From an uncultured Alphaproteobacteria bacterium (GTDB lineage: Bacteria > Pseudomonadota > Alphaproteobacteria > RF32 > CAG-239): a stretch of DNA of 64,000 nucleotides. The stretch lies in contig CALXTV010000007.1 of NCBI GenBank assembly GCA_944391505.1, forward strand, positions 2,839 through 66,838. Direction: 5' to 3'. Of the stretch, positions 1,071 to 64,000 are shown in pieces (position 1 is the first letter of the stretch; every line of letters begins with the position of its first letter). Position numbers and translations under genes: made by a program. The notes beneath the pieces were generated by a model. The model was given only the letters and a program-made list of their open reading frames with translations. It was not told where the DNA came from and did no database searches.

Positions 1071-1415
1071 TCAGAAGATGGAATAAATGCCATAGGCCGC
1101 AAAGCAGGCGCATGGCACAAAAACGAGCCAGCTCTTAAACATCCGCCGGACGCCGAAATAGGGATAACCGTCTTCCCATTCGTCAATACAAATTTCATGG
1201 CTGCCGACATAATAGAAAAATTCGTTGCTGATAAGCCAGAAAAAGCCGATAACGGCATATTCCCGGATTTCCGAAAAACCGATGCCGATTGTCAGAAGTA
1301 AAATAACCGACTGAACCGCCGCACGAACATTCCGGAAGAATTTTTCGTCTCTAACCTGTTTTTCAAAAAAGCTTTTCATAAGGCTGTATATTAAGGGGTT
1401 AATAATATATTTCAT
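1071..1415 (-). CDS. Small integral membrane protein, hypothetical
   Basis: 114-aa ORF with 3 predicted hydrophobic helices. It sits in an operon-like arrangement with the flanking minus-strand genes. Confidence 0.45.
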   Translation of the reverse strand: MKYIINPLIYSLMKSFFEKQVRDEKFFRNVRAAVQSVILLLTIGIGFSEIREYAVIGFFWLISNEFFYYVGSHEICIDEWEDGYPYFGVRRMFKSWLVFVPCACFAAYGIYSIF

Positions 1416-1486
1416 AATTTGATTTCTGCTTTTTTATAACATAACCGGCAAAAAAAGTAAACCGGTCTCGGCCGGAAAGATTTGTC

Positions 1487-2281
1487 TTACAGACTCATTT
1501 CTTTTGCCGGCAGATTGGGGTGCTTGTTTTTGGAAATGATAAATGAGGGGAAGACGGTCATGCCGTCCCCGTAGCCGTAATAGCTGCTGGCCTTTGTCAA
1601 AATGTCTCTGGCTTCCAGAAAGGCACAGTTTCTTTTTCCGTCATTGGCGTGTATTTTGTTTTCAAATTGTCTTTTTTGTGCCGGCGTTGCCTCAATCGAC
1701 AATATTTTTGGAAGATGGGCGCCGGCGTTCGGCGTCGGATTGGCCGGATCATAAAAATAATCGCCGCCGGGGATTTTCATGCTGATAAAGCTGTGCGGTT
1801 CGCCGTCTTCATCGGAGGAATGGTGCAGCAGCTCGCCGCCGCAGTATTTTGAGTCAAACCCCTGCCTTTGCAGATAAGCCTGGGCAAGCAGGGCAATTTC
1901 GGCACAGGCGCAAATGCCGGCCGCAACGGCTTCGGAGAGGGTTTTGCTGCCTTTTTCGTCATAAAATTTTGCCCTTTGGTCTGTGTTGTCCGACAAGCCG
2001 GGATACATTTTTCGCAAAACATTGTCAAAGGCATACAGATGAGCGAAGGTTTTAAGGTCAAAACCGGGAGCGGCCTTGTCCAGCCACTGTTTCATTCCGC
2101 TGTCGGTTTCAATCCGCCGGGCGTTTTCTTCCGTTTTTTGAAAAAGCGCCTCAAAATTGTCAATATCGGCCGTAACGGCCAGATTAAAAGTACCGGGATA
2201 TGAACCGCCGATTAAAATTTTGTCGTTGTTTTGAATGTCGTCAATGCGGCAGCTTACGTCGTTTAACTTTTCAAAATTCAT
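1487..2281 (-). CDS. Transglutaminase-like cysteine protease domain protein
   Basis: Core motif GICACAEIALLAQAYLQRQGF (catalytic Cys) is followed by His and Asp positions (PHSF...DYFYDP), as in the TGase-like superfamily. Confidence 0.55.
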   Translation of the reverse strand: MNFEKLNDVSCRIDDIQNNDKILIGGSYPGTFNLAVTADIDNFEALFQKTEENARRIETDSGMKQWLDKAAPGFDLKTFAHLYAFDNVLRKMYPGLSDNTDQRAKFYDEKGSKTLSEAVAAGICACAEIALLAQAYLQRQGFDSKYCGGELLHHSSDEDGEPHSFISMKIPGGDYFYDPANPTPNAGAHLPKILSIEATPAQKRQFENKIHANDGKRNCAFLEARDILTKASSYYGYGDGMTVFPSFIISKNKHPNLPAKEMSL

Positions 2282-7338: not shown

Positions 7339-8211
7339 ATGCACGATATTTGGAACCCCTGGCACGGCTGCGTCAAAAAAAGCGAAGGCTGCCGCAACTG
7401 TTATATGTTTTTCCTTGACCGGCAGCGCGGCGGCGACGGCAGCCGGATTTATAAGGTTAAAAACAATTTCGACTATCCGCTGCAAAAAGACCGGGACGGG
7501 CGTTATAAGGTAAAAAGCGGCGAACAGCTCCGCGTCTGCATGACTTCGGACTTTTTCCTGGCCGAAGCCGACGATTGGCGCCCGGAGGCCTGGCGGATAA
7601 TCCGGCAGCGGCCGGACGTTGTCTTCTTTTTGCTGACCAAACGTCCCGAGCGGGTGAAAGACTGCCTGCCGCCGGACTGGGGCGACGGCTGGGAGAACGT
7701 TTTTTTCAACGTCACTTGCGAAAATCAGAAAATGGCCGACGAGCGCATTCCGCTGCTGCTGGAGCTTCCGTTTAAGCACAGGGGCATTATGGCCGCGCCT
7801 TTCATCGGCGAAGTAAGCCTTGCCGGATATCTGGCTTCCGGTCAGATTGAACAGGTCATCGCCGGCGGCGAAAATTATGACGGTTCGCGCCCCTGTGATT
7901 TCAATTGGGTTAAAAAGCTGTATGCCGAATGTGTTGCCGCCGACGTGACTTTTTGTTTTATCGAAACCGGAACATACTTTGTCAAAGACGGCAAAACATA
8001 TCATCTGCCGGACAAACGCCTGCAAAGTGAAATGGCCTTCAAATCCGGCCTGCAGTATCGGGGCAGGGAGCCGGATTTCCGGCTTTCATGGCCACAGCCT
8101 TCACTTTTTGAACACCCGGAACCCTATCAAAAATTTTTCCGCGAACGCTGCCAAACCTGCGGCAGCCGGCTGATTTGCAACGGCTGTTCAAACTGCGGCC
8201 GCTGCGGATAA
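7339..8211 (+). CDS. DUF5131 (phage Gp37/Gp68 family) protein
   Basis: The N-terminus WNPWHGCVKKSEGCRNCY matches the family signature (WNPVTGC...GCxNCY). The C-terminus is Cys-rich. Confidence 0.65.
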   Translation: MHDIWNPWHGCVKKSEGCRNCYMFFLDRQRGGDGSRIYKVKNNFDYPLQKDRDGRYKVKSGEQLRVCMTSDFFLAEADDWRPEAWRIIRQRPDVVFFLLTKRPERVKDCLPPDWGDGWENVFFNVTCENQKMADERIPLLLELPFKHRGIMAAPFIGEVSLAGYLASGQIEQVIAGGENYDGSRPCDFNWVKKLYAECVAADVTFCFIETGTYFVKDGKTYHLPDKRLQSEMAFKSGLQYRGREPDFRLSWPQPSLFEHPEPYQKFFRERCQTCGSRLICNGCSNCGRCG

Positions 8212-8263
8212 GAAAAACCCCTTTGCCTTGGTTATGCAAAGGGGTTTTTCGGAGTAAAGAGCC

Positions 8264-9310
8264 TTATTTCAGCTCCAGAGCCTCTCTCGGCGTGGCAAAA
8301 TTGCCTTTTTCCAGCTTTTTGCGAATGTCTTCGTTCCAGATAAAGCCGCCGTTTTCGTCATACATTTCCTGTACCGGCACGGCCTTATACGAAAACATCG
8401 GCAGATCCAGAAGCTCGTCAATGGCAATTTCATGATGCCAGAGAGCACGCAGTATATAAAAATACTGCTTTGGTTCGTCCTGGGTCTTTCTGATTTCGCC
8501 GTCGGCCTTTTGCAGAAGCAGCCAGTCCGCAGCCTCGGCAAATTCGCCTTCGTTGACTTTTTTCAAAAAAGTCGAGCGGGCAAAACCGTATTTTCCCATG
8601 CGCATGGCGGCCAGGGTAATAACGGCCATTTCCTGCTCGCTGAACTCAAGTTCCGGATTCAGGTTTTTCAGAACCAGAGGCTTCCAGTCTTCGGCCACGA
8701 TTTTAACCGATTCGTCATACGTCAGACCTTTGAAGTCATATTCGCTGACCGGTTTGTCATTGATAAATTTGAAACCGACCAAAGCGCGCGGACAGTCAGA
8801 GTTGATTTTGGTCTGAACGCCGTCCAGATAGGCTCGGGCAATAATGACTTTGTCAAACGACTGATAATACACAGCCTCAACCTTTTGAACCGGAGCGGTT
8901 TTTTCTTTGCTACCGCTGCTTTTCCAACAGAGGAAAATGCCGAATGCCAGAGCCAGAAGCAACAGCCACGGCCACCAGTTTTTGAAATTTTCGTGAGGTT
9001 CGCGGTTTCCCTTTGGCCGATGCCGGAACGGATTGTGAAACAATCCCTGCAGCCGGAGCCAGGCGACAACGGCAATACCCGTCAGCGTAAGCAGCAGCCG
9101 CCACCAGTTGTCGCCGACCCAGGTTAATGCCGGCGCCAGTTGTGAAAAGCACCAGGCAAGCCCCAGGAGAATCACATAAAGGATTGCAAGGGTCAGGGCG
9201 GCAAGTGCGGCCAGAATAAGAAACCGGAGAACGTTCAGGAGATCATAGCGAATAATCAGCTGTCCCTGATACCATTTGCCGTTAAGGCGTTTCAACTCGA
9301 AAGTTTTCAT
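8264..9310 (-). CDS. Membrane-anchored protein with a T4-lysozyme-like (GH24-like) C-terminal domain
   Basis: It has four N-terminal TM helices. The C-terminal region LTYDESVKIVAEDW...AVITLAAMRMGKYGFARSTFLKKVNEGEFAEAADWL parallels the T4L segment ITKDEAEKLFNQDV...[36 protein letters not shown]. The catalytic residues are not confidently placed. Confidence 0.5.
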   Translation of the reverse strand: MKTFELKRLNGKWYQGQLIIRYDLLNVLRFLILAALAALTLAILYVILLGLAWCFSQLAPALTWVGDNWWRLLLTLTGIAVVAWLRLQGLFHNPFRHRPKGNREPHENFKNWWPWLLLLALAFGIFLCWKSSGSKEKTAPVQKVEAVYYQSFDKVIIARAYLDGVQTKINSDCPRALVGFKFINDKPVSEYDFKGLTYDESVKIVAEDWKPLVLKNLNPELEFSEQEMAVITLAAMRMGKYGFARSTFLKKVNEGEFAEAADWLLLQKADGEIRKTQDEPKQYFYILRALWHHEIAIDELLDLPMFSYKAVPVQEMYDENGGFIWNEDIRKKLEKGNFATPREALELK

Positions 9311-53192: not shown

Positions 53193-54428
53193 TTAATATG
53201 TCTTTTGAGACAGTAATGCTTGATTTATTGGTACATTAGATCTTGTGTTGCTGTTATTTTGTTTAACATGGGTTAGTAACGGATTAGTACCATGCCTTAA
53301 TGAAACAAGAAAATAATATTGTTGACTTTTACTCATACCTTGAAATTGTGTATGAGAAGTAGTTAAACCCTGATTTGGCAAAGGAGGCGGCATAGGATTT
53401 ACATATTCTTGAGCAACTTGTTGCCCCGTTTTGCTCAATTGTTTTGCACGTCCATAAATGCTTTCCTGTATTTTATTTAAATCAATTTTTTCAGCGGGAG
53501 TATAATTTTCATTATTTTGTAATTCTGAAATAGTTCTGTACATCCCATCAGCACCATTTTCATCATATTGTTTAATCATATTATTTCTGCGAGCTGTCAT
53601 ATTTTCACTTAGACAAGTATCAATAGGTTTATGCAGATTAGCAAAGTCTCGCCATTTTTTATCTATAATTTCTCCGTTTTCATCAAGTTCTAAAGGGATG
53701 ACTTTTTGTTGTTGCTTTTCTTGGTCGTATGCTGATATCCAAACTTTTTTAAGTTTATTCTGATGTGGAAATATTGCTGTTTCATTTTTATCATATGCTT
53801 TTTCTATATCAAACTCATCTGTAAAGTAATCATGATTAATATCGCCAAAACCTTGTCATTTTCCTTTACTTTCATACTCAAAAACGAAACCGTATATGAC
53901 CTTCCCGTCATGACAAGACAAAAACCTTGAATTATGTCCAGATCCCCGGGGTGTAACATAGTCACAGGCACCTTGCATAATTTGCTTATTTTGACCTGAT
54001 ATAGAAACATTTTCTTGTCTAGCCCCAAAAGCAGCACCATATGTATGTCCATAAACTTCATATTTAACCAATACAGCATAAGGATCACCACTAAAGCCTC
54101 CATGAAAAACAGAAGCTAACTCACCTTTGTTTTGTAATGACTCTATATTTTCTTTGTTCATTACAACAGGATCGACGCCATTTTCCATAACATTTTTTAT
54201 CATTTCATCAGCATAATCATCTAAGGATAAGTGATCTTTAAGAATTTCTTGATAGTTACTGCCATTAGCTCTGGCTATTATATTGATGTCTAAATTTCTA
54301 CCTATATCAGTAGCAGCCGGTGCAATTTCTTTACGAGTCATAGGATGGGATAAATATACTTTACCTCCTTGTTTAGATATAGCCTCAATTATTTTTATAT
54401 TTGCTTTTAATGCTTCATCCGGAGCCAT
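53193..54428 (-). pseudogene. Toxin-like 411-codon reading frame interrupted by one in-frame TGA (at 53856-53858)
   Basis: Track ORFs 53856..54428 and 53193..53600 are in the same frame. The sequence between them is open except for a single TGA (...ESKGK*QGFGD...). AT-rich island. Confidence 0.5.
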
Positions 54429-54532: not shown

Positions 54533-54931
54533 TTACCTTTTATTGCAAATTGTTGGATATTCCCAATTTCCTGATAATTTAGAACAATCTTGGGATATAA
54601 AGTCAAATTTACAATCATTATTATCAATATTCCAAGCTTTTTGATTATTTAGGCAAATTTCTTTAAATGTTTGATTGTTTGGGCAATTTGATAAATTTTT
54701 GCATTGTTTCAAAAGTTTTGTCTGTTCCGGTGTAAGTTTGATACAGCCAAATTCTTTTTTCCAAATTAAGCAATCATCTCGGCAAATATTATTTTGATAA
54801 TCCCATACTTGTCCGTTATCCACACAAGTATCAATACTCAACCAATAAGGATTGCGAATAAAGGAAATGCTTAAACCCAGTAAACATACGCCAAAAAAGC
54901 TTATCATTAATATTTTTATAATTTTTGTCAT
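54533..54931 (-). CDS. Cys-rich (12 Cys) membrane-anchored small protein
   Basis: N-terminal TM/signal anchor. Its start is 3 nt after the stop of the upstream SAA-like gene. Confidence 0.6.
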   Translation of the reverse strand: MTKIIKILMISFFGVCLLGLSISFIRNPYWLSIDTCVDNGQVWDYQNNICRDDCLIWKKEFGCIKLTPEQTKLLKQCKNLSNCPNNQTFKEICLNNQKAWNIDNNDCKFDFISQDCSKLSGNWEYPTICNKR

Positions 54932-54934
54932 TGC

Positions 54935-55393
54935 CTAATATTTTTTATTTGTTGATTTTTTTCTTTTAAATTCGCAACCATCTTTAGCATTTGTATATAG
55001 CCCACTTTTTGCTTGATGGCGCCCAAGCGAATTAATATATTTATCGTGTTCATAATCAGCATAAGCATCTATAGCTGATGTTCCTTTTATAATCCTATTT
55101 TTGAAATAGTCAATTCGTTCTTTAGCATCACCAATAGCTTCTGCTGTTTTCTCGCCCCATTTTCCTCTTTGGGTTGCTTCATAATTTGCTTTGCAATGAA
55201 AATAGTCATCGTTTCCAATTACATTATCTTCTTTCATATCATTATAATTTTTATACATGTCAGAAGCAGCACCAAAAATTTGAGCAAAAGGTGTTTCTAG
55301 TAAATTAGTCATTTTATTATTTCTGTTTGTTTGCTTTTTCTTCATTTGTTTTTCAGGATCTTCCTGAATGATATAACGTATAAGGTTACTCAT
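54935..55393 (-). CDS. Serum amyloid A (SAA)-like protein
   Basis: AAAGGA RBS. FGAASDMYKNYNDMKEDNVIGNDDYFHCKANYEATQRGKWGEKTAEAIGDAKERIDYF aligns with vertebrate SAA [59 protein letters not shown]. Confidence 0.75.
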   Translation of the reverse strand: MSNLIRYIIQEDPEKQMKKKQTNRNNKMTNLLETPFAQIFGAASDMYKNYNDMKEDNVIGNDDYFHCKANYEATQRGKWGEKTAEAIGDAKERIDYFKNRIIKGTSAIDAYADYEHDKYINSLGRHQAKSGLYTNAKDGCEFKRKKSTNKKY

Positions 55394-56063: not shown

Positions 56064-56321
56064 ATGAAAGAACAAATTGTAAAATTTCTGCGTTTTTTGT
56101 GTGGGTATATTATACTAAGCTCTTTGGCCTTACTTATATTTAATGGGATTTCAGGCCCTAAAAATTATGTTTTTGGCTGGCCTTCCTTTATTTATATGGT
56201 AACATATCTTATTTATCCCCTAATAAGAAAACTCGGGAACATCAATAAGAAATATAGTGTTATTTATTTTTCAGTGCTATATTTTATTTTATGTTTTTTA
56301 TATTTTATATTTATCTTCTAA
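56064..56321 (+). CDS. Small membrane protein, hypothetical
   Basis: GGAGAGGAAATATG RBS. 85 aa with 3 hydrophobic helices. Terminator at 56341-56371. Confidence 0.45.
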   Translation: MKEQIVKFLRFLCGYIILSSLALLIFNGISGPKNYVFGWPSFIYMVTYLIYPLIRKLGNINKKYSVIYFSVLYFILCFLYFIFIF

Positions 56322-56507: not shown

Positions 56508-56529
56508 ATATCTATTGAAAGGAAACCTC

Positions 56530-57264
56530 ATGGTAAATTTATCAAATATTTTATTAACAGCAGGAAAAAAAATTACTAAAGCAATTGTCAAAAAAGAAGC
56601 CAGAGAGCATAGTGATACCATTGATGAATTCTCTAACTCAACGGCATTAAATCCGTTTGACGTTAAACCATTGAATGAAGGAGAAGATGAACGTATTGAA
56701 CAGATATTAAAATCTAAGGAGACATATGAACCTTATTATAAAAAACAACTTGAAAAACTTAACCAAAAACAAAAATTAATCCAAGATATAAATCAAAACA
56801 ATAACGCAGAAGAAGATATTTTATATAAACACCCTTCACAAATTACAGAAGCTGAAATAAAAAATAGTATGATTTATTCAGGAGACAAAACGTCTGACCG
56901 AGAATTAAAAGAACAATTGCAAAAGAAACAAAAAGATTGGTTTGATTTTTATTATGGTACAGATGCAATTAAAACGGATGCAGCCGGAAAATATATATCA
57001 CCTTCAATAAAGCATTCATTACCGGATGCTCCCGTTGAGCTTACAACCAAAGAAAAACTTCCGTTGATGAACGGATTTGATAAAATAGCAGAATATACAT
57101 CTAAGAATGATGTGAAAACATTGCAAAATAGGCTTAACAATCTTTATCAGAATGATACTTCTTTGCCACAATTAAAAGAAGATGGAATTCTTGGTAAAAA
57201 AACTACATCTCGTATAAAAAAAGCCCTTGTTGAATTTGGTGTAAATAAAATTACTCAAAACTAA
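56530..57264 (+). CDS. Protein with C-terminal peptidoglycan-binding (PG_binding_1-like) domain
   Basis: AAAGGA RBS. LQNRLNNLYQNDTSLPQLKEDGILGKKTTSRIKKAL matches the PGBD pattern (LQ..L..LGY...DGifG..T..A). Charged, K/E-rich N-terminal region. Confidence 0.65.
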   Translation: MVNLSNILLTAGKKITKAIVKKEAREHSDTIDEFSNSTALNPFDVKPLNEGEDERIEQILKSKETYEPYYKKQLEKLNQKQKLIQDINQNNNAEEDILYKHPSQITEAEIKNSMIYSGDKTSDRELKEQLQKKQKDWFDFYYGTDAIKTDAAGKYISPSIKHSLPDAPVELTTKEKLPLMNGFDKIAEYTSKNDVKTLQNRLNNLYQNDTSLPQLKEDGILGKKTTSRIKKALVEFGVNKITQN

Positions 57265-57748: not shown

Positions 57749-57778
57749 CCACCTTAAATAGGTGGTTTTCTTTTAATT
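57749..57778 (+). terminator. Intrinsic terminator/attenuator ~30 nt upstream of the autotransporter start codon
   Basis: ccaccttaaataggtgg plus ttttcttttaatt. Confidence 0.55.
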
Positions 57779-57806
57779 GCAATTAAAGAAAAGGAAGTTT
57801 AATCAT

Positions 57807-60800
57807 ATGAAAAAATCTTTATTAATGACAACAGCATTGGTTGCACTGGTGAGTGCATCTAATGCCCGCGCTGAAGATTGGACAGTCAGTGCGCCGGAAA
57901 GTATTGAAAACCAAATCCTAAATAAAGACAATGTAACCATTCAAGCCGGAGGCGAAGTTGCAATTTCCGGAGACACGGAAAGCGGCATAATCGCCAAAAG
58001 TTTTACGATGGAAGGCGGAAAGCTGACCGCAACATCGGTTAACGGCAGCGCCGACACCGGAATTTTCGTTAAATCGGACAGTTCAGACATAAACTTGAAT
58101 GGCGGCACCATCGAGTTAACAAATTCACGCATCTACAAAGGCAATGATACAGAGACAAGCGGAGATATTAATATTTCCGGTGGAGATATTACTTTGAATA
58201 AAGATGCCTATATTGAAATGCGGAAAGAAAACAGCGGTAATGTCAATATAACCGGTGGCAACTTACTCTTAAATGAAAATTCAGCCTTGCTCATCAATAG
58301 CAACAATGACCAAGAAGTTGAGGGCAACGCCTCCAAGGTGATAATCAATGGGGAAGGGGCGCAAATTACGGCAACCGGAAACAACCGCATCACGGGAAAT
58401 ATTGATTTTACGAACGGAACCCTAACAGTCAGCGACAATGCAAGTTTGACTTCCGGTGATATAACTATGTCCGGTGAAGATGCTCAGATAGATTTGTCCG
58501 GCCAGTTGAATACAAATATTTCCGGCAATGGAAATATCACATTCCAAAATTCGTCCTCAAATATTAAAGGGAATGTCTCAGGCTCTCATTTAACCTTTGA
58601 AGCAGACCATTCTTTAAGCCAAGCTATTTCGGGCGGTATTTCTAATTTAGCCTCTTTGAGTGTTAATAAAGGAACATTGACGTATGATAAACCTTCGGAA
58701 GGTCTTTTAGGTGATGTGAAGGTTGCTCAAGGAGCGGGATTAAATGTTAATAAATTTATGCAAACCAATGATTTAACGCTTAACGGAAAAGTCAGCATCA
58801 ATGATGATGTCGCCGCACAAGGAAACATCAAAATAGCCGATGCCTCGATTGATTTGAACGGCAAGTCATTAAATGCCATAAAAGAAGGTATTACAATGAC
58901 GAGCGGAACCATCAATATGAACAATGGCTCAGGCGACCAAGATTTAACCCTTTGGGCGGCTAAAGATATTAATATCTTGGGCGGTACAATTAATATGAAT
59001 GGTCGCGAAGCATACATTGACACATTTTATGACTTGCTTAACCCTGATGACCATACACCGCTCCCAAAACCGGACACTCCTGGAAATATTAATATTTCTA
59101 ATGCGACCATTAACGTTAACAGCAATTCGGCGGAAATATCTTCCGAAGGAAAGATTAATGTTTCCGATAATGCGGTCATCAATATCGCATCTGGTGCAAA
59201 ATTATCTTCTTATGAGAGCTTTAGCATTAAAAATGCAGATTTAGTATTAGGTGATAAGGCCACTATCAATCTTACCGGTACCGGCGCAATTAATATTGCC
59301 GGTAATTTGGCGGCAAATGTTGAAGGTGATGGTAATCTGAACATTAAGTCTTCTAATGCGGTAATTGATGGTGATATCAAAGGCTCGCAATTAACCTTTG
59401 AGGCAGACCATTCTTTGAGTAAAGCTCTGTTGGGTGAGAATATTGAATTAGCCTCTTTGAACGTTAACAAAGGTACGTTGACTTTTGATAAACAACCAAC
59501 TTCAATCACCAATTTGAATGTTGCCGGAGGTTTGGACATTGGTACCAATACCGTAAAAGCTACCAATGTTTCCTTCAAAGACAACTCCACGCTTAAATTC
59601 ACGGTTGCCGGTAAAGAAGACGGAAGTTATGGTAAAATTCAAGCTAGTACGATAGATATTAGCACAACCGGTACCAAACTTGATTTAACCTTAAACAGCA
59701 GTGTTTTGGGTAAAGATGAAGCAAAAGATTTTACTATTCTTGATGGTAGTGTCAGCGGAGATTTTGCGGAGTTAAGCAAAAACAGCCGTTATGAATTTGA
59801 AAAATTAGGAAACGGTCAATATAAAATTACCGGAAAAGCCTCAGCGGCTGATATTGCGACAGAAGCCGGCGGTAATGCCAACAATGTCGGCACTGCAACG
59901 GCTTGGGATGGTGTTTCTTTAGATAACCCAAGCGGTTCAACTTCCGGACAAGTTGCCAATGCCTTGGCTGAATTGGCTGGTAAACCGGATGCCGCCTCAC
60001 AAAAGGCTTATGTAGATGCTTTGACCGCGGTTGCTCCTGAGGTTGCGCCAATGGTTCAACATACACAAACCGAAACCGCAAACCAAGTCTTTGGCGCTGT
60101 CGGTACACGTTTAACCGGTGGTTCTGTTTCTACCGGTGGTGAAGGTATGTCTTCCGGTGATAATATCTTTGAGCGTGCCGCAATGTGGGTTCAAGGCTTG
60201 TTTAATAAATCTAAACTTGATGACACTTCAAAATCTTATGGCTTTGATGCAGATTCAAACGGTATCGCCATGGGTGCTGAAAAATATGTAACGGAAGACA
60301 CCAAAGTCGGTTTAGGTTATGCTTATACCAACACCGATATTGACGGCTTCAAAAGAGATACTGATGTCGATACACATACCGCCTTTGTTTATGGCGAATA
60401 TAAGCCGAGTAATTGGTATGTTAACGGTATCGCCTCATACGGCTGGTCAGATTATGACGAAAGCAAGAATGTTGCCGGAGTTAATGTTAAGTCTGACTAT
60501 GATGCCGAAACCTTTGGTTTGCAAGCTATGGCCGGTTATGACATGCAAATGAAACACTTCGGTTTAACTCCTGAAGTTGGTTTGCGCTATGTTCACATTA
60601 GCCAAGACAGCTATAAAGATTCTGCCGACCAAAGAGTATCTGCAAATGATAGCGATATCTTAACCGGTGTTATCGGTGCTAAAGTCAGCAAAACTTGGAC
60701 GCTTGAAAACGGTATGAACATTAAACCGGAAGCACGCATTGCCGCAACTTATGACCTGATGAACGATGACACAAACTCTGTCGTAACTTTGGCCAATGGT

Positions 60801-60971
60801 TCGGCTTATGCGGTCGATGGCGAAGCTCTTGACCGTTTCGGAATGGAATTCGGTGCCGGTGTAACTGCGGAAGTTAACGACAATGTTGAGCTTTCTCTCG
60901 GTTATGAGGGCAAATTCCGCGATAATTACGAAGACCATACAGGCTTGATTAACGCTAAATATAAGTTTTAG
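57807..60971 (+). CDS. Autotransporter with large repetitive passenger domain
   Basis: AAGGAAG RBS, signal peptide MKKSLLMTTALVALVSASNARA, and an internal duplication (LTFEADHSLSQAISGGISNLASLSVNKGTLTYDK / LTFEADHSLSKALLGENIELASLNVNKGTLTFDK). The C-terminal beta-barrel ends ...INAKYKF. Confidence 0.9.
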   Translation: MKKSLLMTTALVALVSASNARAEDWTVSAPESIENQILNKDNVTIQAGGEVAISGDTESGIIAKSFTMEGGKLTATSVNGSADTGIFVKSDSSDINLNGGTIELTNSRIYKGNDTETSGDINISGGDITLNKDAYIEMRKENSGNVNITGGNLLLNENSALLINSNNDQEVEGNASKVIINGEGAQITATGNNRITGNIDFTNGTLTVSDNASLTSGDITMSGEDAQIDLSGQLNTNISGNGNITFQNSSSNIKGNVSGSHLTFEADHSLSQAISGGISNLASLSVNKGTLTYDKPSEGLLGDVKVAQGAGLNVNKFMQTNDLTLNGKVSINDDVAAQGNIKIADASIDLNGKSLNAIKEGITMTSGTINMNNGSGDQDLTLWAAKDINILGGTINMNGREAYIDTFYDLLNPDDHTPLPKPDTPGNINISNATINVNSNSAEISSEGKINVSDNAVINIASGAKLSSYESFSIKNADLVLGDKATINLTGTGAINIAGNLAANVEGDGNLNIKSSNAVIDGDIKGSQLTFEADHSLSKALLGENIELASLNVNKGTLTFDKQPTSITNLNVAGGLDIGTNTVKATNVSFKDNSTLKFTVAGKEDGSYGKIQASTIDISTTGTKLDLTLNSSVLGKDEAKDFTILDGSVSGDFAELSKNSRYEFEKLGNGQYKITGKASAADIATEAGGNANNVGTATAWDGVSLDNPSGSTSGQVANALAELAGKPDAASQKAYVDALTAVAPEVAPMVQHTQTETANQVFGAVGTRLTGGSVSTGGEGMSSGDNIFERAAMWVQGLFNKSKLDDTSKSYGFDADSNGIAMGAEKYVTEDTKVGLGYAYTNTDIDGFKRDTDVDTHTAFVYGEYKPSNWYVNGIASYGWSDYDESKNVAGVNVKSDYDAETFGLQAMAGYDMQMKHFGLTPEVGLRYVHISQDSYKDSADQRVSANDSDILTGVIGAKVSKTWTLENGMNIKPEARIAATYDLMNDDTNSVVTLANGSAYAVDGEALDRFGMEFGAGVTAEVNDNVELSLGYEGKFRDNYEDHTGLINAKYKF

Positions 60972-61078: not shown

Positions 61079-61112
61079 CAGCCTCGGATAAAAATATTCG
61101 AGGCTGCTTTTA
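61079..61112 (+). terminator. Rho-independent terminator of the autotransporter gene
   Basis: cagcctcg...cgaggctg plus a T-run. Confidence 0.8.
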
Positions 61113-61357
61113 TATAAATTGTTAAATAAGTTCAAAATATGTAAAGAAAAAATCCAGTTATTCAAAAGCAATAAACCAATATCAATAAGTTTCAGATTTC
61201 AGAATATCTTAACAGTTCCTATTGCTCAGAATATCATTGGTTAGTTGAGTTGATTGAATATGATAATAATAGTTTTAGGCGTAGAGGAGAAATTTATGGT
61301 ATCAAATCGGCTGTGTTTTTATCACAATCTATTTTTGTTTTGTTATTTATTCTATCT

Positions 61358-61849
61358 CTAATGAGTCAAATCGGCTTTGTCATCACATTCAATTCTTGCT
61401 TGATGGAGATATTCTTTTACTGTATTTTGAATCCAATATGTCGCCTTCCCAATTGCTATGGTGTTATACATATTTCCTCCGCGCACAGATGCAAAATCGC
61501 TATATTGTATCATATCATGAGCACAGGCATAATAGGCTGTAACCAGTGTATCAAAATTCTTTTTGACCTCAGCATTGTATTTTTTATAATTTCTGTCAAA
61601 AAGTTTATGGGCAACAGCAATAGAACAATCACCAAAATCATAAGCCGCATTATTCATATCTGCAGTTGAGGGAGCATCGGCCATTTGAATTTTGCAATTC
61701 GCCAATTCTTCTTCCAAACTACGAAGAAATGCATCTTCTTCACCTGAACATTTTTCTTGTTTGTCAGTGTAGGTTGATACTTTTTCTTCTGCTGCGGAAG
61801 CTTGTATAGATAATGCCAATGCCATTATTAATAATAAAATAAATCTCAT
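61358..61849 (-). CDS. Secreted Cys-containing protein (possibly DUF1311/LprI-like)
   Basis: Signal peptide MRFILLLIMALALSIQASA and 6 Cys. It is the last gene of the minus-strand island operon. Confidence 0.55.
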   Translation of the reverse strand: MRFILLLIMALALSIQASAAEEKVSTYTDKQEKCSGEEDAFLRSLEEELANCKIQMADAPSTADMNNAAYDFGDCSIAVAHKLFDRNYKKYNAEVKKNFDTLVTAYYACAHDMIQYSDFASVRGGNMYNTIAIGKATYWIQNTVKEYLHQARIECDDKADLTH

Positions 61850-61853
61850 CCCG

Positions 61854-62366
61854 CTATTCCTTATGAGTTTGAAGAGGCTTTACTTCCATCTTCTTAAAGG
61901 CAACAATCATTAAAACACCATAAATAATTAATGGTAAGAAAAAGAATATTGCTCCAAGAATGGCATTCCCCAGACTGCCAAGTGTTAAGATAATATTTTT
62001 TTGTTTAAACAAAAAATACAAATAAACAAATATATATAATAACCATTCAGGAATTATTACTTGCCAAGATAAGGCTTTGTATAAATAATTTTTTCCATAA
62101 ATTTTCAGCCCTGTGTAGAGGGGAAAGGCTTGAAAATAAAAACAAATGATTGTAAATGTTTCATAACGACATGGGGCTTGTTCATCTTTTCTAAACCAAT
62201 GAAAATAGTTATTCCAACCAAATTCCAGATAATTTTGAATTTGAGCCCCAAAAGCAGGAGTAATACAGATTTCGCCACTTTGATGGTCATTCGTCATCAT
62301 TGTTCCCCATAATAGAGACAAAACAATAATCAGTAGCTCTAGTATAATGTATTTTACTATTTTCAT
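61854..62366 (-). CDS. Membrane protein, paralog 2 of tandem pair (immunity-protein-like)
   Basis: Shares GWNNYF(H/Q)WF, a PC(R) motif and TM topology with 62379..62885. About 4-5 TM helices. Confidence 0.6.
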   Translation of the reverse strand: MKIVKYIILELLIIVLSLLWGTMMTNDHQSGEICITPAFGAQIQNYLEFGWNNYFHWFRKDEQAPCRYETFTIICFYFQAFPLYTGLKIYGKNYLYKALSWQVIIPEWLLYIFVYLYFLFKQKNIILTLGSLGNAILGAIFFFLPLIIYGVLMIVAFKKMEVKPLQTHKE

Positions 62367-62378
62367 AGGTTTCTCTTT

Positions 62379-62885
62379 TTACTTGCTTTTTATTTTCATT
62401 ATATGCATGTTGCACCCAGATATTATAAATACAGAACACAGAATAAAAGGAACAAATAGTAGCAATATTCCGATTAAAGCATTTATGAAACTATAACTTG
62501 TTAACACTAGACCTGGCTGCAAAAATAACCATATCATAAATAGAGCAATGTAAAATATATATTCTGAAATAACAAATTTATATTTAAGCGTTATTGAAAG
62601 CTTAAACATTCCATACACCTTTAACAAAGCATATGCAGGAAAACAACTTAAAAAATATAAGCACCATGCTGCAAAAGTTATACGGCATGGCATTTGTTCT
62701 ATATTTGAAAACCATTGAAAATAGTTATTCCAGCCTAATGCCAGATAGTTACCAATATTTATTCCATAATTTGCTGTTAGGCATGTTTCTCCAGGTTTGA
62801 GCATTGAGATAAAAAATAAATCTCCCCAAAACCAAGCGGCGATAATAAATATTAGTTCCAGAATGACATAAAATAAAATTTTCAT
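62379..62885 (-). CDS. Membrane protein, paralog 1 of tandem pair (immunity-protein-like)
   Basis: Paralogous to 61854..62366. Its start overlaps the stop of the upstream SLT-like gene by 1 nt. Confidence 0.6.
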   Translation of the reverse strand: MKILFYVILELIFIIAAWFWGDLFFISMLKPGETCLTANYGINIGNYLALGWNNYFQWFSNIEQMPCRITFAAWCLYFLSCFPAYALLKVYGMFKLSITLKYKFVISEYIFYIALFMIWLFLQPGLVLTSYSFINALIGILLLFVPFILCSVFIISGCNMHIMKIKSK

Positions 62886-63817
62886 TATTTTCCTTTTTTT
62901 GATTTAAATTTTGGCATTTCCAATGGGTTATTCCAAGTTTTATTTTTATAATATTCTTTGGCCCGAGCACCATAATCATTTACTTCTTTTAATCCTGTAC
63001 CATTCCATAAAGTAGCAATTTTGGCAATATCTTTATCCGGAACAGCATCATATATGGATTTAAGAACCCTTACGCCGAGTTCTATGTTTTGCTCAGGATC
63101 ATTAACATCATATTGTTTTCCTTGAAAGTTACCCCACGTCTTTCCTTGAATATTCATAGGAAGGGTACTTTCAGAAATTTTTATAATATCAGCCAATTTG
63201 TTGTATCCATATTTATGATAATCAGAATTTTCTGAATATATTATAGCTTTTGTTATATTAGGGTCAAGCCCATATCGTTGAGAATATTTTTCTATTTGTT
63301 TGCTATATTTATCTACATAATCTCTTCCCCAGTTGTGTAAATGTTCAGGTAATAAGTCTGGTTTGGCATTAGGATTATCGGCAATATTAATATATATTTT
63401 TTTGCCTGATTTAAGAGCATCTATTCTGTCTTTAGCACTCATTCCATTTCCATTTATTGATATTTGTGGATTTTTTATTTCTTGTTTTATGTCAATTTTG
63501 GGAGAGCTTTTAGCCCATGGAGTTTGATTTTCTGTTTTGTCAGATATTTTTAAATCTTGAGATTTTATATTTGAAGAAGATTTTTCATCAGATTTAATAT
63601 TGTTAAAGATATTAGAAATTCCACTCATAAAAGAACCATCATCTTTACTTTGTGAAGATTTGTTTGCTGTTAATGAATTAAAGCTGTTTTCCAACAAATT
63701 TTTAGAGCTGAATTTATAGCCTTTGTATTTGTCTTCTTGAGATTGTTTTTGAATAGGATAATTAAAAAAATATATTTTTTGAAAAATAGACAAAATAATG
63801 CTTGCATAGCATGTCAA
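62885..63817 (-). CDS. Lytic transglycosylase (SLT-domain)-like protein with low-complexity S/K/N-rich N-terminal region
   Basis: IIYSENSDYH (ES catalytic-type motif), NDPEQNIELGVRVL (compare MltE NPERNISMGAAYL), and LWNGTG (compare SYANGAG). The start is uncertain. Confidence 0.55.
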   Translation of the reverse strand: MTCYASIILSIFQKIYFFNYPIQKQSQEDKYKGYKFSSKNLLENSFNSLTANKSSQSKDDGSFMSGISNIFNNIKSDEKSSSNIKSQDLKISDKTENQTPWAKSSPKIDIKQEIKNPQISINGNGMSAKDRIDALKSGKKIYINIADNPNAKPDLLPEHLHNWGRDYVDKYSKQIEKYSQRYGLDPNITKAIIYSENSDYHKYGYNKLADIIKISESTLPMNIQGKTWGNFQGKQYDVNDPEQNIELGVRVLKSIYDAVPDKDIAKIATLWNGTGLKEVNDYGARAKEYYKNKTWNNPLEMPKFKSKKGK

Positions 63818-63830
63818 AATGTGGTATATA
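63802..63830 (+). promoter_or_regulatory. sigma70-like promoter TTGCAT-N17-TATATA driving the partial plus-strand gene
   Basis: Read directly. It overlaps the 5' end of the divergent SLT-like gene. Confidence 0.4.
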
Positions 63831-63881
63831 CTATTTCAGAAAAAAATATTTTTATGTTAAATAAAAAAATTTTATCATTAT

Positions 63882-64000
63882 GGAAACAAAAACATTTTTT
63901 GAAAAAGTAAAAGAATTAGCTAGAGAAAATAGTTTCAAATGTAATGCCGCCGGTCGTCGGTTTGTGGCTGATAAAATTCAGGTAACAGAACCACGCTTGT
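63882..64000 (+). CDS. Partial CDS running off the window end
   Basis: ATG at 63882, and METKTFFEKVKELARENSFKCNAAGRRFVADKIQVTEPRL is open to the window end. Confidence 0.4.

Follow-up and report, generated by a model that had tools for sequence, protein, structure and literature searches.

The closest described systems to the locus reported here pair an enzyme that attacks peptidoglycan with an adjacent immunity gene. In Tse3–Tsi3 of Pseudomonas aeruginosa and VgrG3–TsiV3 of Vibrio cholerae, both of them type VI secretion system (T6SS) pairs, a lysozyme- or lytic transglycosylase (LT)-fold enzyme is directed against competitor peptidoglycan, and the neighbouring gene encodes a periplasm-facing immunity protein that is soluble or a lipoprotein. 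Pesticin of Yersinia pestis, a muramidase that stands alone, has its TonB box at residues 3–7 and a disordered translocation region, and is countered by a periplasmic immunity protein (PMC3390615). Polymorphic toxin systems, including those of MuF type, join a constant N-terminal module to C-terminal toxin domains that are swapped by recombination, and are accompanied by toxin-specific immunity genes, orphan immunity genes and gene remnants (Zhang et al. 2012). Here, we analyse a 64,000-nt stretch of contig CALXTV010000007.1 from an uncultured gut alphaproteobacterium (the whole stretch is referred to as the window) and, within it, four tightly packed minus-strand open reading frames (ORFs) close to its end. 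They encode a 310-aa protein with an SLT-type domain (62885..63817), the multi-pass membrane proteins TM-A (168 aa, 62379..62885) and TM-B (170 aa, 61854..62366) and a 163-aa signal-peptide protein, Cys163 (61358..61849); all four ORFs of the sequence-only reading were confirmed by ORF reading.

On the basis of sequence comparison, we consider it probable that this region is a toxin–immunity cassette of a polymorphic cell-wall-toxin island. The sequence-only reading had proposed a peptidoglycan-hydrolase effector with duplicated membrane immunity genes, a proposal now supported by the structure of the toxin family, the linkage of the TM genes to the SLT domain, the existence of orphan immunity genes and the recurrence of the duplication. 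In the mechanism that we envisage, the transglycosylase would cut the glycan strands of peptidoglycan after reaching the periplasm of a competitor, while TM-A and TM-B, in the inner membrane, would expose a periplasmic loop carrying two invariant cysteines and aromatic residues, and would most likely bind and block the enzyme at the membrane surface. By analogy, the pair would be functionally like Tse3–Tsi3, VgrG3–TsiV3 and pesticin–Pim, and its genetic organisation appears to be that of a polymorphic toxin system.

Beyond enzyme fold, target and adjacent, predicted periplasm-facing immunity, the likeness to the T6SS pairs extends to Tse3 itself, which is among the structural matches of the SLT model, and to VgrG3, whose C-terminal domain family is matched by a sister toxin. 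The locus differs from these pairs in having no linked T6SS genes or marker domains, a predicted four-helix integral membrane protein as immunity partner and, as putative delivery module, a short N-terminal region predicted to be disordered. Pesticin–Pim and colicin M–Cmi are similar in having a stand-alone toxin without a signal peptide, an N-terminus that is disordered (here by prediction) with a short conserved motif at its extreme end, a C-terminal enzyme acting on periplasmic peptidoglycan and an adjacent immunity gene whose product faces the periplasm (PMC3390615). Here, however, neither a canonical TonB box nor a receptor-binding domain is recognisable, the toxin has an SLT fold and not that of T4-lysozyme or colicin M, the immunity proteins are multi-pass, and the genes lie in chromosomal, multi-cassette polymorphic arrays rather than on plasmids. 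The locus lacks what is expected of T6SS cargo, with no linkage to vgrG, hcp, PAAR or adaptor genes and no MIX/FIX-type domain in the window or the related loci, and possesses only some of the traits of colicin-like bacteriocins.

The colicin A immunity protein, Cai, is a protein of ~170–180 aa with four transmembrane (TM) helices and both ends in the cytoplasm, and is encoded next to its toxin gene. TM-A is of similar size, has four helices in its predicted structure, with both termini predicted to be cytoplasmic, and is likewise encoded next to a toxin gene; Cai, however, acts within the membrane against a pore-forming domain, the partner of TM-A has a soluble-type enzyme fold, and Cai has no sequence or profile similarity to the TM family.

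With polymorphic toxins, the locus shares a constant N-terminus joined to alternative C-terminal toxin domains, adjacent immunity genes that track the toxin domain and not the N-terminus, and orphan immunity genes, remnants and breakpoints; one SLT homologue (P0045) carries a MuF-like N-terminal fragment. In contrast to known polymorphic toxins, the class 1 (MSNLIxYIIQEDPE) and class 2 (MxxYPxxxSPLGY) modules found here match no described trafficking domain, Pfam and NCBIfam scans of the N-terminal region gave no match, secretion genes were absent from all loci examined, and typical Rhs, CdiA or MuF toxins are much longer than these proteins. In the part of the text of the polymorphic-toxin survey of Zhang et al. 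(2012) that was available, the word 'transglycosylase' was not found.

Three elements are new: both N-terminal modules, the employment of an SLT-type domain by a family of this kind and an SLT-specific family of multi-pass membrane proteins proposed to confer immunity. We advance with much more reserve, as rather unlikely at present, the wider idea that these proteins form an undescribed class of cell-wall-degrading protein antibiotics operating without a known secretion system, in which the short N-terminal motif and disordered leader would be the import or delivery signal, TM-A and TM-B would be the first multi-pass immunity proteins for an LT and the paralogs would be matched to toxin alleles. 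Interbacterial toxins shape gut communities, and almost nothing is known of them in uncultured gut Alphaproteobacteria. The toxins proposed here are compact, modular and peptidoglycan-degrading, with a delivery module of ~35 residues at its shortest that, if it is sufficient by itself for uptake or export, would be a useful tag for targeted lysins; neutralisation of a transglycosylase by a membrane-embedded inhibitor would likewise be new and could inform LT inhibition generally.

The proposed effector family and its SLT-type member

Contigs and loci compared with the window are labelled with L-numbers (L001, L008, etc.). A search of 5.8 billion proteins with an intact 322-aa SLT allele returned two kinds of match. 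The first covers only the first ~97 residues, at 92–100 % identity, and the C-termini found behind this common N-terminus are GH108, GH108 plus PG_binding_3, VgrG3-like_C, serum amyloid A (SAA)-like and unannotated sequences. The second covers only the SLT domain, at 35–65 % identity, joined to other N-termini. Across the family, residues 1–14 (MSNLIxYIIQ[ED]DPE) and an NLLE motif are invariant, and the leader following the 14-residue motif, predicted to be disordered, ranges from roughly 35 to 140 residues, the short SAA-type member having ~35. Family members are small and stand-alone, with all listed members under 400 aa and none fused to a carrier. The modular arrangement is displayed in L008, where three cassettes lie in tandem, each opening with a protein that starts MSNLIRYIIQEDPEKQMKKNDLDY and ending, respectively, in VgrG3C-like, GH24/phage-lysozyme-like (weak Pfam match) and SLT domains. 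Look-up of clusters supplied no informative protein name, the one label returned being that of an 'Alphaproteobacteria bacterium' metagenome-assembled genome. A genome scan identified 19 loci in metagenome-assembled genomes of uncultured gut Alphaproteobacteria, with up to three per genome; there is a distant relative in Candidatus Scatocola.

The same set of toxin domains is found in other gut Alphaproteobacteria behind the class 2 N-terminus (MxxYPxxxSPLGYxxG...NFWGNPxNNYGFGNSNI), which is rich in Gly, Asn and Tyr. Class 2 arrays (L041, 1..7624; L035, 3648..7238; L043, 29..2761) contain SAA-like, SLT, GH108 and Gly-rich types, each with a matching partner, and that of L041 directly follows prophage tail and lysozyme genes.

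The identity of the 310-aa protein as LT-like was upheld by a Pfam match to SLT (PF01464; 25.8 bits against a gathering score of 21.3, E value 8.3e-6, residues 175–288). The S/K/N-rich N-terminal region noted earlier is also present, the first 120 residues being 59 % S/K/N/Q/D/E; the protein had been described as secreted, but it has no Sec signal peptide. An AlphaFold2 (AF2) model built from a 39-sequence alignment shows one confident domain at residues ~120–304 (62906..63460; pLDDT mostly >90), while residues 1–116 (pLDDT <50) are predicted to be disordered and are of low-complexity composition. The earlier reading had suggested structure prediction as a check for an SLT or goose-type lysozyme fold with a catalytic Glu, and the model bears this out: the top Foldseek matches in the PDB are MltE, MltC, MltF, Slt, Tse3 and g-type lysozymes (probability ~1 for the top ~20), and a putative catalytic residue, Glu196 (codon 63230..63232), lies in the context AIIYSENSD and is invariant in 39/39 homologues. 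Glu196 aligns with the Glu of AIMQIESS, the IES motif of a solved MltC-type LT (PDB 9vi7), the corresponding motif here being SE-N-S. Because of the fold matches and the invariant, aligned Glu196, we regard the domain as a divergent but probably active LT or muramidase. Cleavage may be hydrolytic, as in lysozyme, rather than of the non-hydrolytic kind that yields 1,6-anhydro-MurNAc.

The allele in the window is, however, truncated at its 5′ end compared with the intact 322-aa SLT alleles of L003 and L008, whose N-terminus is MSNLIRYIIQEDPEKQMKKNDLDYTKYSTSWA. DNA alignment with three intact family genes placed a breakpoint between 63758 and 63759: homology starts at TCCTATTCAAAAAC, leaving the remainder of the shared, predicted-disordered region for delivery or linkage (residues ~21–116, 63470..63758), whereas the 5′ segment of the ORF (63759..63817) is non-homologous. 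Missing from the window are a conserved ~330-nt leader, the start codon and the first 32 codons, including the invariant motif; in their place is unrelated sequence leading into a 382-aa gene. The ORF as it stands begins with TTG and has no evident Shine–Dalgarno sequence. This truncated form is carried by the window, L001, L002 and L010, and truncated and intact alleles are both common in metagenomes. The promoter-leader, start codon and first codons were lost through insertion or recombination; the 382-aa gene sits where the GH24-like cassette belongs, marking the insertion by which the SLT gene was beheaded. Judged from its genes, the window strain is probably immune to the SLT toxin but unable to deliver it. 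It retains an intact SAA-type family member (54935..55393) with its partner, and L001 shows a VgrG3C-type gene just past the window. The locus exemplifies toxin loss with retention of immunity genes, which is relevant to the interpretation of 'hypothetical' membrane and periplasmic genes in metagenomes.

The ~330-nt leader, absent from the window, precedes each intact effector gene (L008, 3300..3725 and 1370..1782; L001, 5290..5577). It holds a promoter-like TTGAAA-17-TATAGA and a strong hairpin resembling a terminator (CCGAAGATTTAGTTCTTCGG followed by a T run), situated ~45 nt ahead of the ATG. Toxin expression could be controlled by attenuation here; searching L001 and L008 against Rfam assigned the leader to no family, and the fold z-score is −2.1. 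A near-consensus promoter-like site, TTGACC-16-TATAAT (11/12), is located inside the SLT ORF at 63267..63240 (−), ~355 nt upstream of TM-A. It could permit toxin-independent expression of immunity, although a single match in AT-rich DNA may be due to chance.

TM-A, TM-B and the partners of other toxin types

As described in the sequence-only reading, the SLT stop and TM-A start codons overlap by 1 nt (TAATG). TM-A and TM-B are separated by 12 nt, and TM-B and Cys163 by 4 nt. TM-A and TM-B are genuinely paralogous (42 % identity, E value 3e-33), and both contain the GWNNYF(Q/H)WF and PCR motifs originally used to relate them. The four to five TM segments assigned to them stand as far as multi-pass topology is concerned, but the AF2 model of TM-A has four helices (residues 2–27, 71–95, 98–121 and 130–167). 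Between the first and second is a loop (residues 28–70) that holds the aromatic GWNNYFxWF...PC motif and two invariant cysteines, Cys35 and Cys67; the positive-inside rule predicts that it faces the periplasm, where a transglycosylase would have to be intercepted.

TM-A/TM-B homologues lie directly 3′ of the SLT-domain genes inspected, on the same strand, whichever of three N-termini these genes carry: class 1 in the window, L001, L008, L044 and L046; class 2 in L035, L038, L041 and L043; and the MuF-like N-terminus in L037. In all, the TM family follows SLT in nine contexts with three N-terminal types. SLT and TM divergence are correlated (Spearman 0.77, 21 locus pairs, without correction for phylogeny). 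Where the same N-terminus and upstream leader are joined to another toxin domain, the partner comes from outside the TM family, all with a signal peptide, lipobox or TM anchor: a 162-aa signal-peptide protein for the VgrG3C-like toxin, a 149-aa lipoprotein, often duplicated, for the GH24-like toxin and Cys163 homologues for GH108.

The TM genes are also found where the toxin is not. In L051, just a 50-residue 3′ toxin remnant lies ahead of the TM gene, and in L048–L050 the TM gene sits among three to four lipoprotein immunity genes with the toxin gene absent. These toxin-free arrays (L048, 2980..5700; L049, 1988..4843; L050, 140..2995) consist of three to four paralogous lipoprotein genes and a long-form TM gene, their lipoproteins belong to the family of the GH24-like toxin's partner, and they look like orphan immunity islands. 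Since the TM gene tracks the SLT domain and stays where the toxin has gone, we interpret it as the cognate immunity gene and not as a holin or general export factor.

The TM family is small, with 45 clusters in a set of 5.8 billion and 48 representatives in one of 1.84 billion, and its proteins are 168–300 aa in length with at least four helices. TM-A, TM-B and Cys163 had no significant match in Pfam or NCBIfam, and Foldseek of the TM-A model against the PDB returned only noise (best E value 3.2, probability 0.1).

A reason for retaining two paralogs is suggested by the toxin alleles. L044 and L046 represent one locus, and their TM pairs are identical; the SLT genes, however, diverge over ~60 residues surrounding the catalytic Glu, defining subtypes a (SENSDYHKYGYNK) and b (SEASDYHRFGMDH). 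L037 combines a subtype-b domain with a single TM gene whose product is 59–62 % identical to TM-B versus 41 % to TM-A, while the toxin of the window is of subtype a and overlaps TM-A. Given these alleles and pairings, we propose as a hypothesis that each paralog serves one toxin subtype, with TM-A probably covering subtype a and TM-B subtype b; strains would keep both as protection against kin with the other toxin allele. The tandem TM duplication recurs independently in L038 and L043. In L038, which is of subtype a, the partner could be assigned to neither TM clade.

The fourth gene of the run has a different affiliation. Cys163 has a typical signal peptide, as had been reported, and five cysteines rather than the six counted previously. 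It was placed in the operon with the SLT gene; it does belong to the same gene run, but not to the SLT pair, being a partner of GH108-type toxins elsewhere. Its homologues directly follow GH108-type effectors (precomputed Pfam PF05838) in L020 (85 % identity), L035 (39 %) and L018 (35 %) and are absent after SLT in L035, L037 and L038. As they follow GH108 toxins and not SLT, Cys163 is, by this linkage, best described as an orphan periplasmic immunity protein for a GH108-type toxin not present nearby. Next to it, at 61151..61306 (+), tblastn revealed a 3′ remnant (52 of 149 codons) of a lipoprotein immunity gene with 92 % identity to residues 98–149 of the L008 lipoprotein; full copies of this partner of the GH24-like toxin are convergent to GH24-like effectors in L008, L011, L013, L014 and L019. 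Cys163 and the lipoprotein remnant are footprints of cassette shuffling.

Delivery and alternative readings

Several points weigh against a toxin–immunity cassette. The Foldseek matches of the SLT model have weak E values (~5e-3) and TM-scores of ~0.45 to the target, and a profile search of the SLT family against solved structures gave only a marginal match to the MltC type (E value 0.25). The TM-A model is only moderately confident (pLDDT 68; ~50–57 in the loop). The most distant SLT homologue (L039, 35 % identity) is followed by a four-TM protein without detectable similarity to the TM family. The immunity proteins known to counter peptidoglycan-hydrolase effectors are either lipoproteins or soluble proteins of the periplasm, and we know of no precedent for a four-helix membrane immunity protein for a transglycosylase. 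Toxicity and protection are themselves deduced from genomic context. Lastly, the N-terminal modules contain no known trafficking or marker domain by Pfam and NCBIfam, and a search for T6SS, type IV (T4SS) and type I (T1SS) secretion genes found no vgrG, hcp, PAAR, adaptor, T4SS or T1SS genes in the window or near related loci. The sequence-only reading had likewise seen no secretion-system genes, and this now extends to ~25 related loci. A Pfam scan of the large neighbouring ORFs of these loci returned radical-SAM enzymes, an autotransporter, a nucleotidyltransferase and similar proteins and no secretion apparatus, and a literature search for secretion systems in RF32-type gut Alphaproteobacteria yielded nothing.

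How a toxin of this family would reach its target is the point on which readings diverge most, and we consider export by a system encoded elsewhere and pesticin-like import about equally likely. Under the former, the proteins would be cargo of a contact-dependent secretion system (T6SS, T4SS, flagellar/type III-like or undescribed) with the N-terminal motif as loading or export signal, an option that we take seriously without thinking it probable. Common N-terminal modules on polymorphic effectors are typical of such cargo, a sister toxin domain matches Pfam T6SS_VgrG3-like_C, and Tse3 is, as noted, a structural match. Peptidoglycan hydrolases with periplasmic immunity are classic effector types of the T6SS and X-T4SS; on the other hand, the repertoire included no recognisable toxin with a cytoplasmic target. 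Being short and predicted to be disordered, the N-terminal region is unlike MIX- or FIX-type domains, and the absence of marker domains, of carrier fusions (all listed members being <400 aa) and of nearby secretion genes also argues against cargo status.

That last absence is, conversely, what would be expected if the proteins were diffusible bacteriocins of the pesticin/colicin M kind whose release needs no secretion system of its own, the 14 N-terminal residues serving as a TonB/Tol box, import proceeding via an outer-membrane receptor and the enzyme domain acting in the periplasm, at the site of the immunity proteins; we regard this as possible yet, on balance, doubtful. Small, stand-alone toxins without a Sec signal and with a predicted disordered segment at residues 1–116 are consistent with it, and the class 2 N-terminus is Gly/Asn/Tyr-rich like colicin T domains. 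An invariant, beta-prone motif lies at the extreme N-terminus, as does the pesticin TonB box (residues 3–7) ahead of its disordered T domain (PMC3390615), yet the motif is unlike the classical TonB-box consensus (DTMVV-type). No receptor-binding domain is apparent, the AF2 model showing no folded domain between N-terminus and enzyme, and in the short SAA-type member the toxin domain is preceded by just ~35 residues. All candidate immunity partners examined are exposed to the envelope, and those toxin domains that could be identified have peptidoglycan as their target; some immunity genes are, moreover, convergent to the toxin gene, an orientation also known from pesticin, colicin M and pore-forming colicins. 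Neither a lysis gene nor an SOS box was identified.

A muramidase gene beside small multi-TM proteins is also the layout of a lysis cassette, and the TM proteins could in principle help to release or export the transglycosylase in the manner of holins, the model being phage lysis or type-10-like secretion; the prophage genes adjoining L041 fit such an origin. We consider this improbable. The TM family is tied to the SLT domain alone, while sister toxins with the same N-terminus and leader have different partners, and TM genes outlive the toxin and sit in arrays of other immunity genes. At 168–300 aa with at least four helices, the proteins are larger than typical holins. There are no phage genes around the window locus, and scans of IMG/VR viral contigs gave no matches for the TM family or for N-terminal class 1 or class 2, and lend no support to a phage-borne origin. 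Holin function for the TM proteins was accordingly rejected, these being specific to one toxin domain and persisting as orphans.

It is very improbable that the SLT protein serves housekeeping or belongs to a machinery, as do transglycosylases of the VirB1, FlgJ or pilus-assembly type, and merely lies beside unrelated membrane proteins: specialised SLT-domain proteins often accompany envelope-spanning machines and NCBIfam gave weak partial matches, far below cut-off, to flagellar LT and MltB, but no machinery genes are nearby, the gene lies in a 30 % GC variable island with presence/absence polymorphism, its N-terminus is common to unrelated toxin domains and it is truncated in many strains.

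Island layout and neighbouring genes

The toxin–immunity cassette that we favour lies in an AT-rich island, as first described (GC 0.30 at 61100–64000 vs 0.47 at 1–52500). This variable island takes up the low-GC part of the window, which begins at ~52.7 kb and continues to the end, and the remainder of the window contains ordinary chromosomal genes and two autotransporters. Within the island, a 42 % GC autotransporter gene (57777..60971, +, 1064 aa) interrupts flanks of 30–32 % GC; it is missing from the otherwise syntenic L002, a presence/absence polymorphism inside the island. A terminator-like hairpin lies 3′ of it, at 61079..61106. An exact-sequence look-up of TM-A revealed the same locus on many gut-metagenome contigs.

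A gene starting at 63880 and leaving the window (63880..64000, +) had been predicted, and is present: tblastn of its first 40 aa maps to 63880..63999, and it is 382 aa in the longer contig L001, where it occupies 7858..9006 (−). The suggested divergent sigma70 promoter gained no support, the 17 sigma-70-like matches not exceeding chance (18.5 ± 3.7 expected from shuffled sequence). Pfam returned no significant match for the 382-aa gene, the best hint being a sub-threshold SUKH_6 match (E value 0.09). SUKH proteins are an immunity superfamily, and this may be yet another immunity gene. Inspection of the continuation past 64000, as had been advised, was possible in L001, where the divergent 382-aa gene is followed by a 162-aa signal-peptide gene and then by a gene for a 358-aa protein whose VgrG3-like C-terminal domain is of the lysozyme/chitosanase type. 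Beyond the toxin island, L001 1..5147 carries KAP-NTPase, AAA_14/DUF4143 and DUF6119 genes, as is typical of defence islands, and the toxin island thus adjoins a defence-gene hotspot.

A second toxin-family member in the window, at 54935..55393 (−), encodes 152 aa with an intact N-terminal motif (MSNLIRYIIQEDPEKQMKK) and an SAA-like domain (Pfam SAA, E value 9.5e-20). It is followed directly by a gene for a 132-aa Cys-rich protein with an N-terminal hydrophobic anchor (54533..54931, −), a putative immunity protein to the short SAA-type toxin given that the linkage recurs in L024, L025 and L028. Longer SAA-type members (281 aa) were found in integrase/restriction–modification islands; a TM-anchor gene of ~70 aa comes after them, and the vicinity also holds ankyrin-repeat genes.

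A further C-terminal type comprises a ~190-aa class with an Ala/Gly-rich tail, followed by ~177-aa membrane proteins. These short members (~165–200 aa; L017, 8410..9577; L022, 577..1756; L024, 10049..11172; L026, 375..1548; L029, 8832..11107) have the Ala/Gly-rich tail where the C-terminus is sequenced (L017, L022 and L026), and the ~177-aa membrane protein encoded behind each has an FSFKG(T/R)xxRxxFW motif, which we take to be DUF805-like, although Pfam gave no match. In such a pair, the toxin probably targets the membrane and the immunity protein is located there.

Two window ORFs, 53193..53600 (−, 135 aa) and 53856..54428 (−, 190 aa), are halves of one disrupted gene that is intact (250–274 aa) in L002 and L003. 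Finally, an 85-aa ORF with three hydrophobic segments (56064..56321, +) adjoins a 249-aa ORF with a C-terminal PG_binding_1 domain (56515..57264, +). This pair recurs beside effector cassettes in L017 and L019, with parts in L014, L024 and L028, and could be another toxin/immunity pair or a release module.

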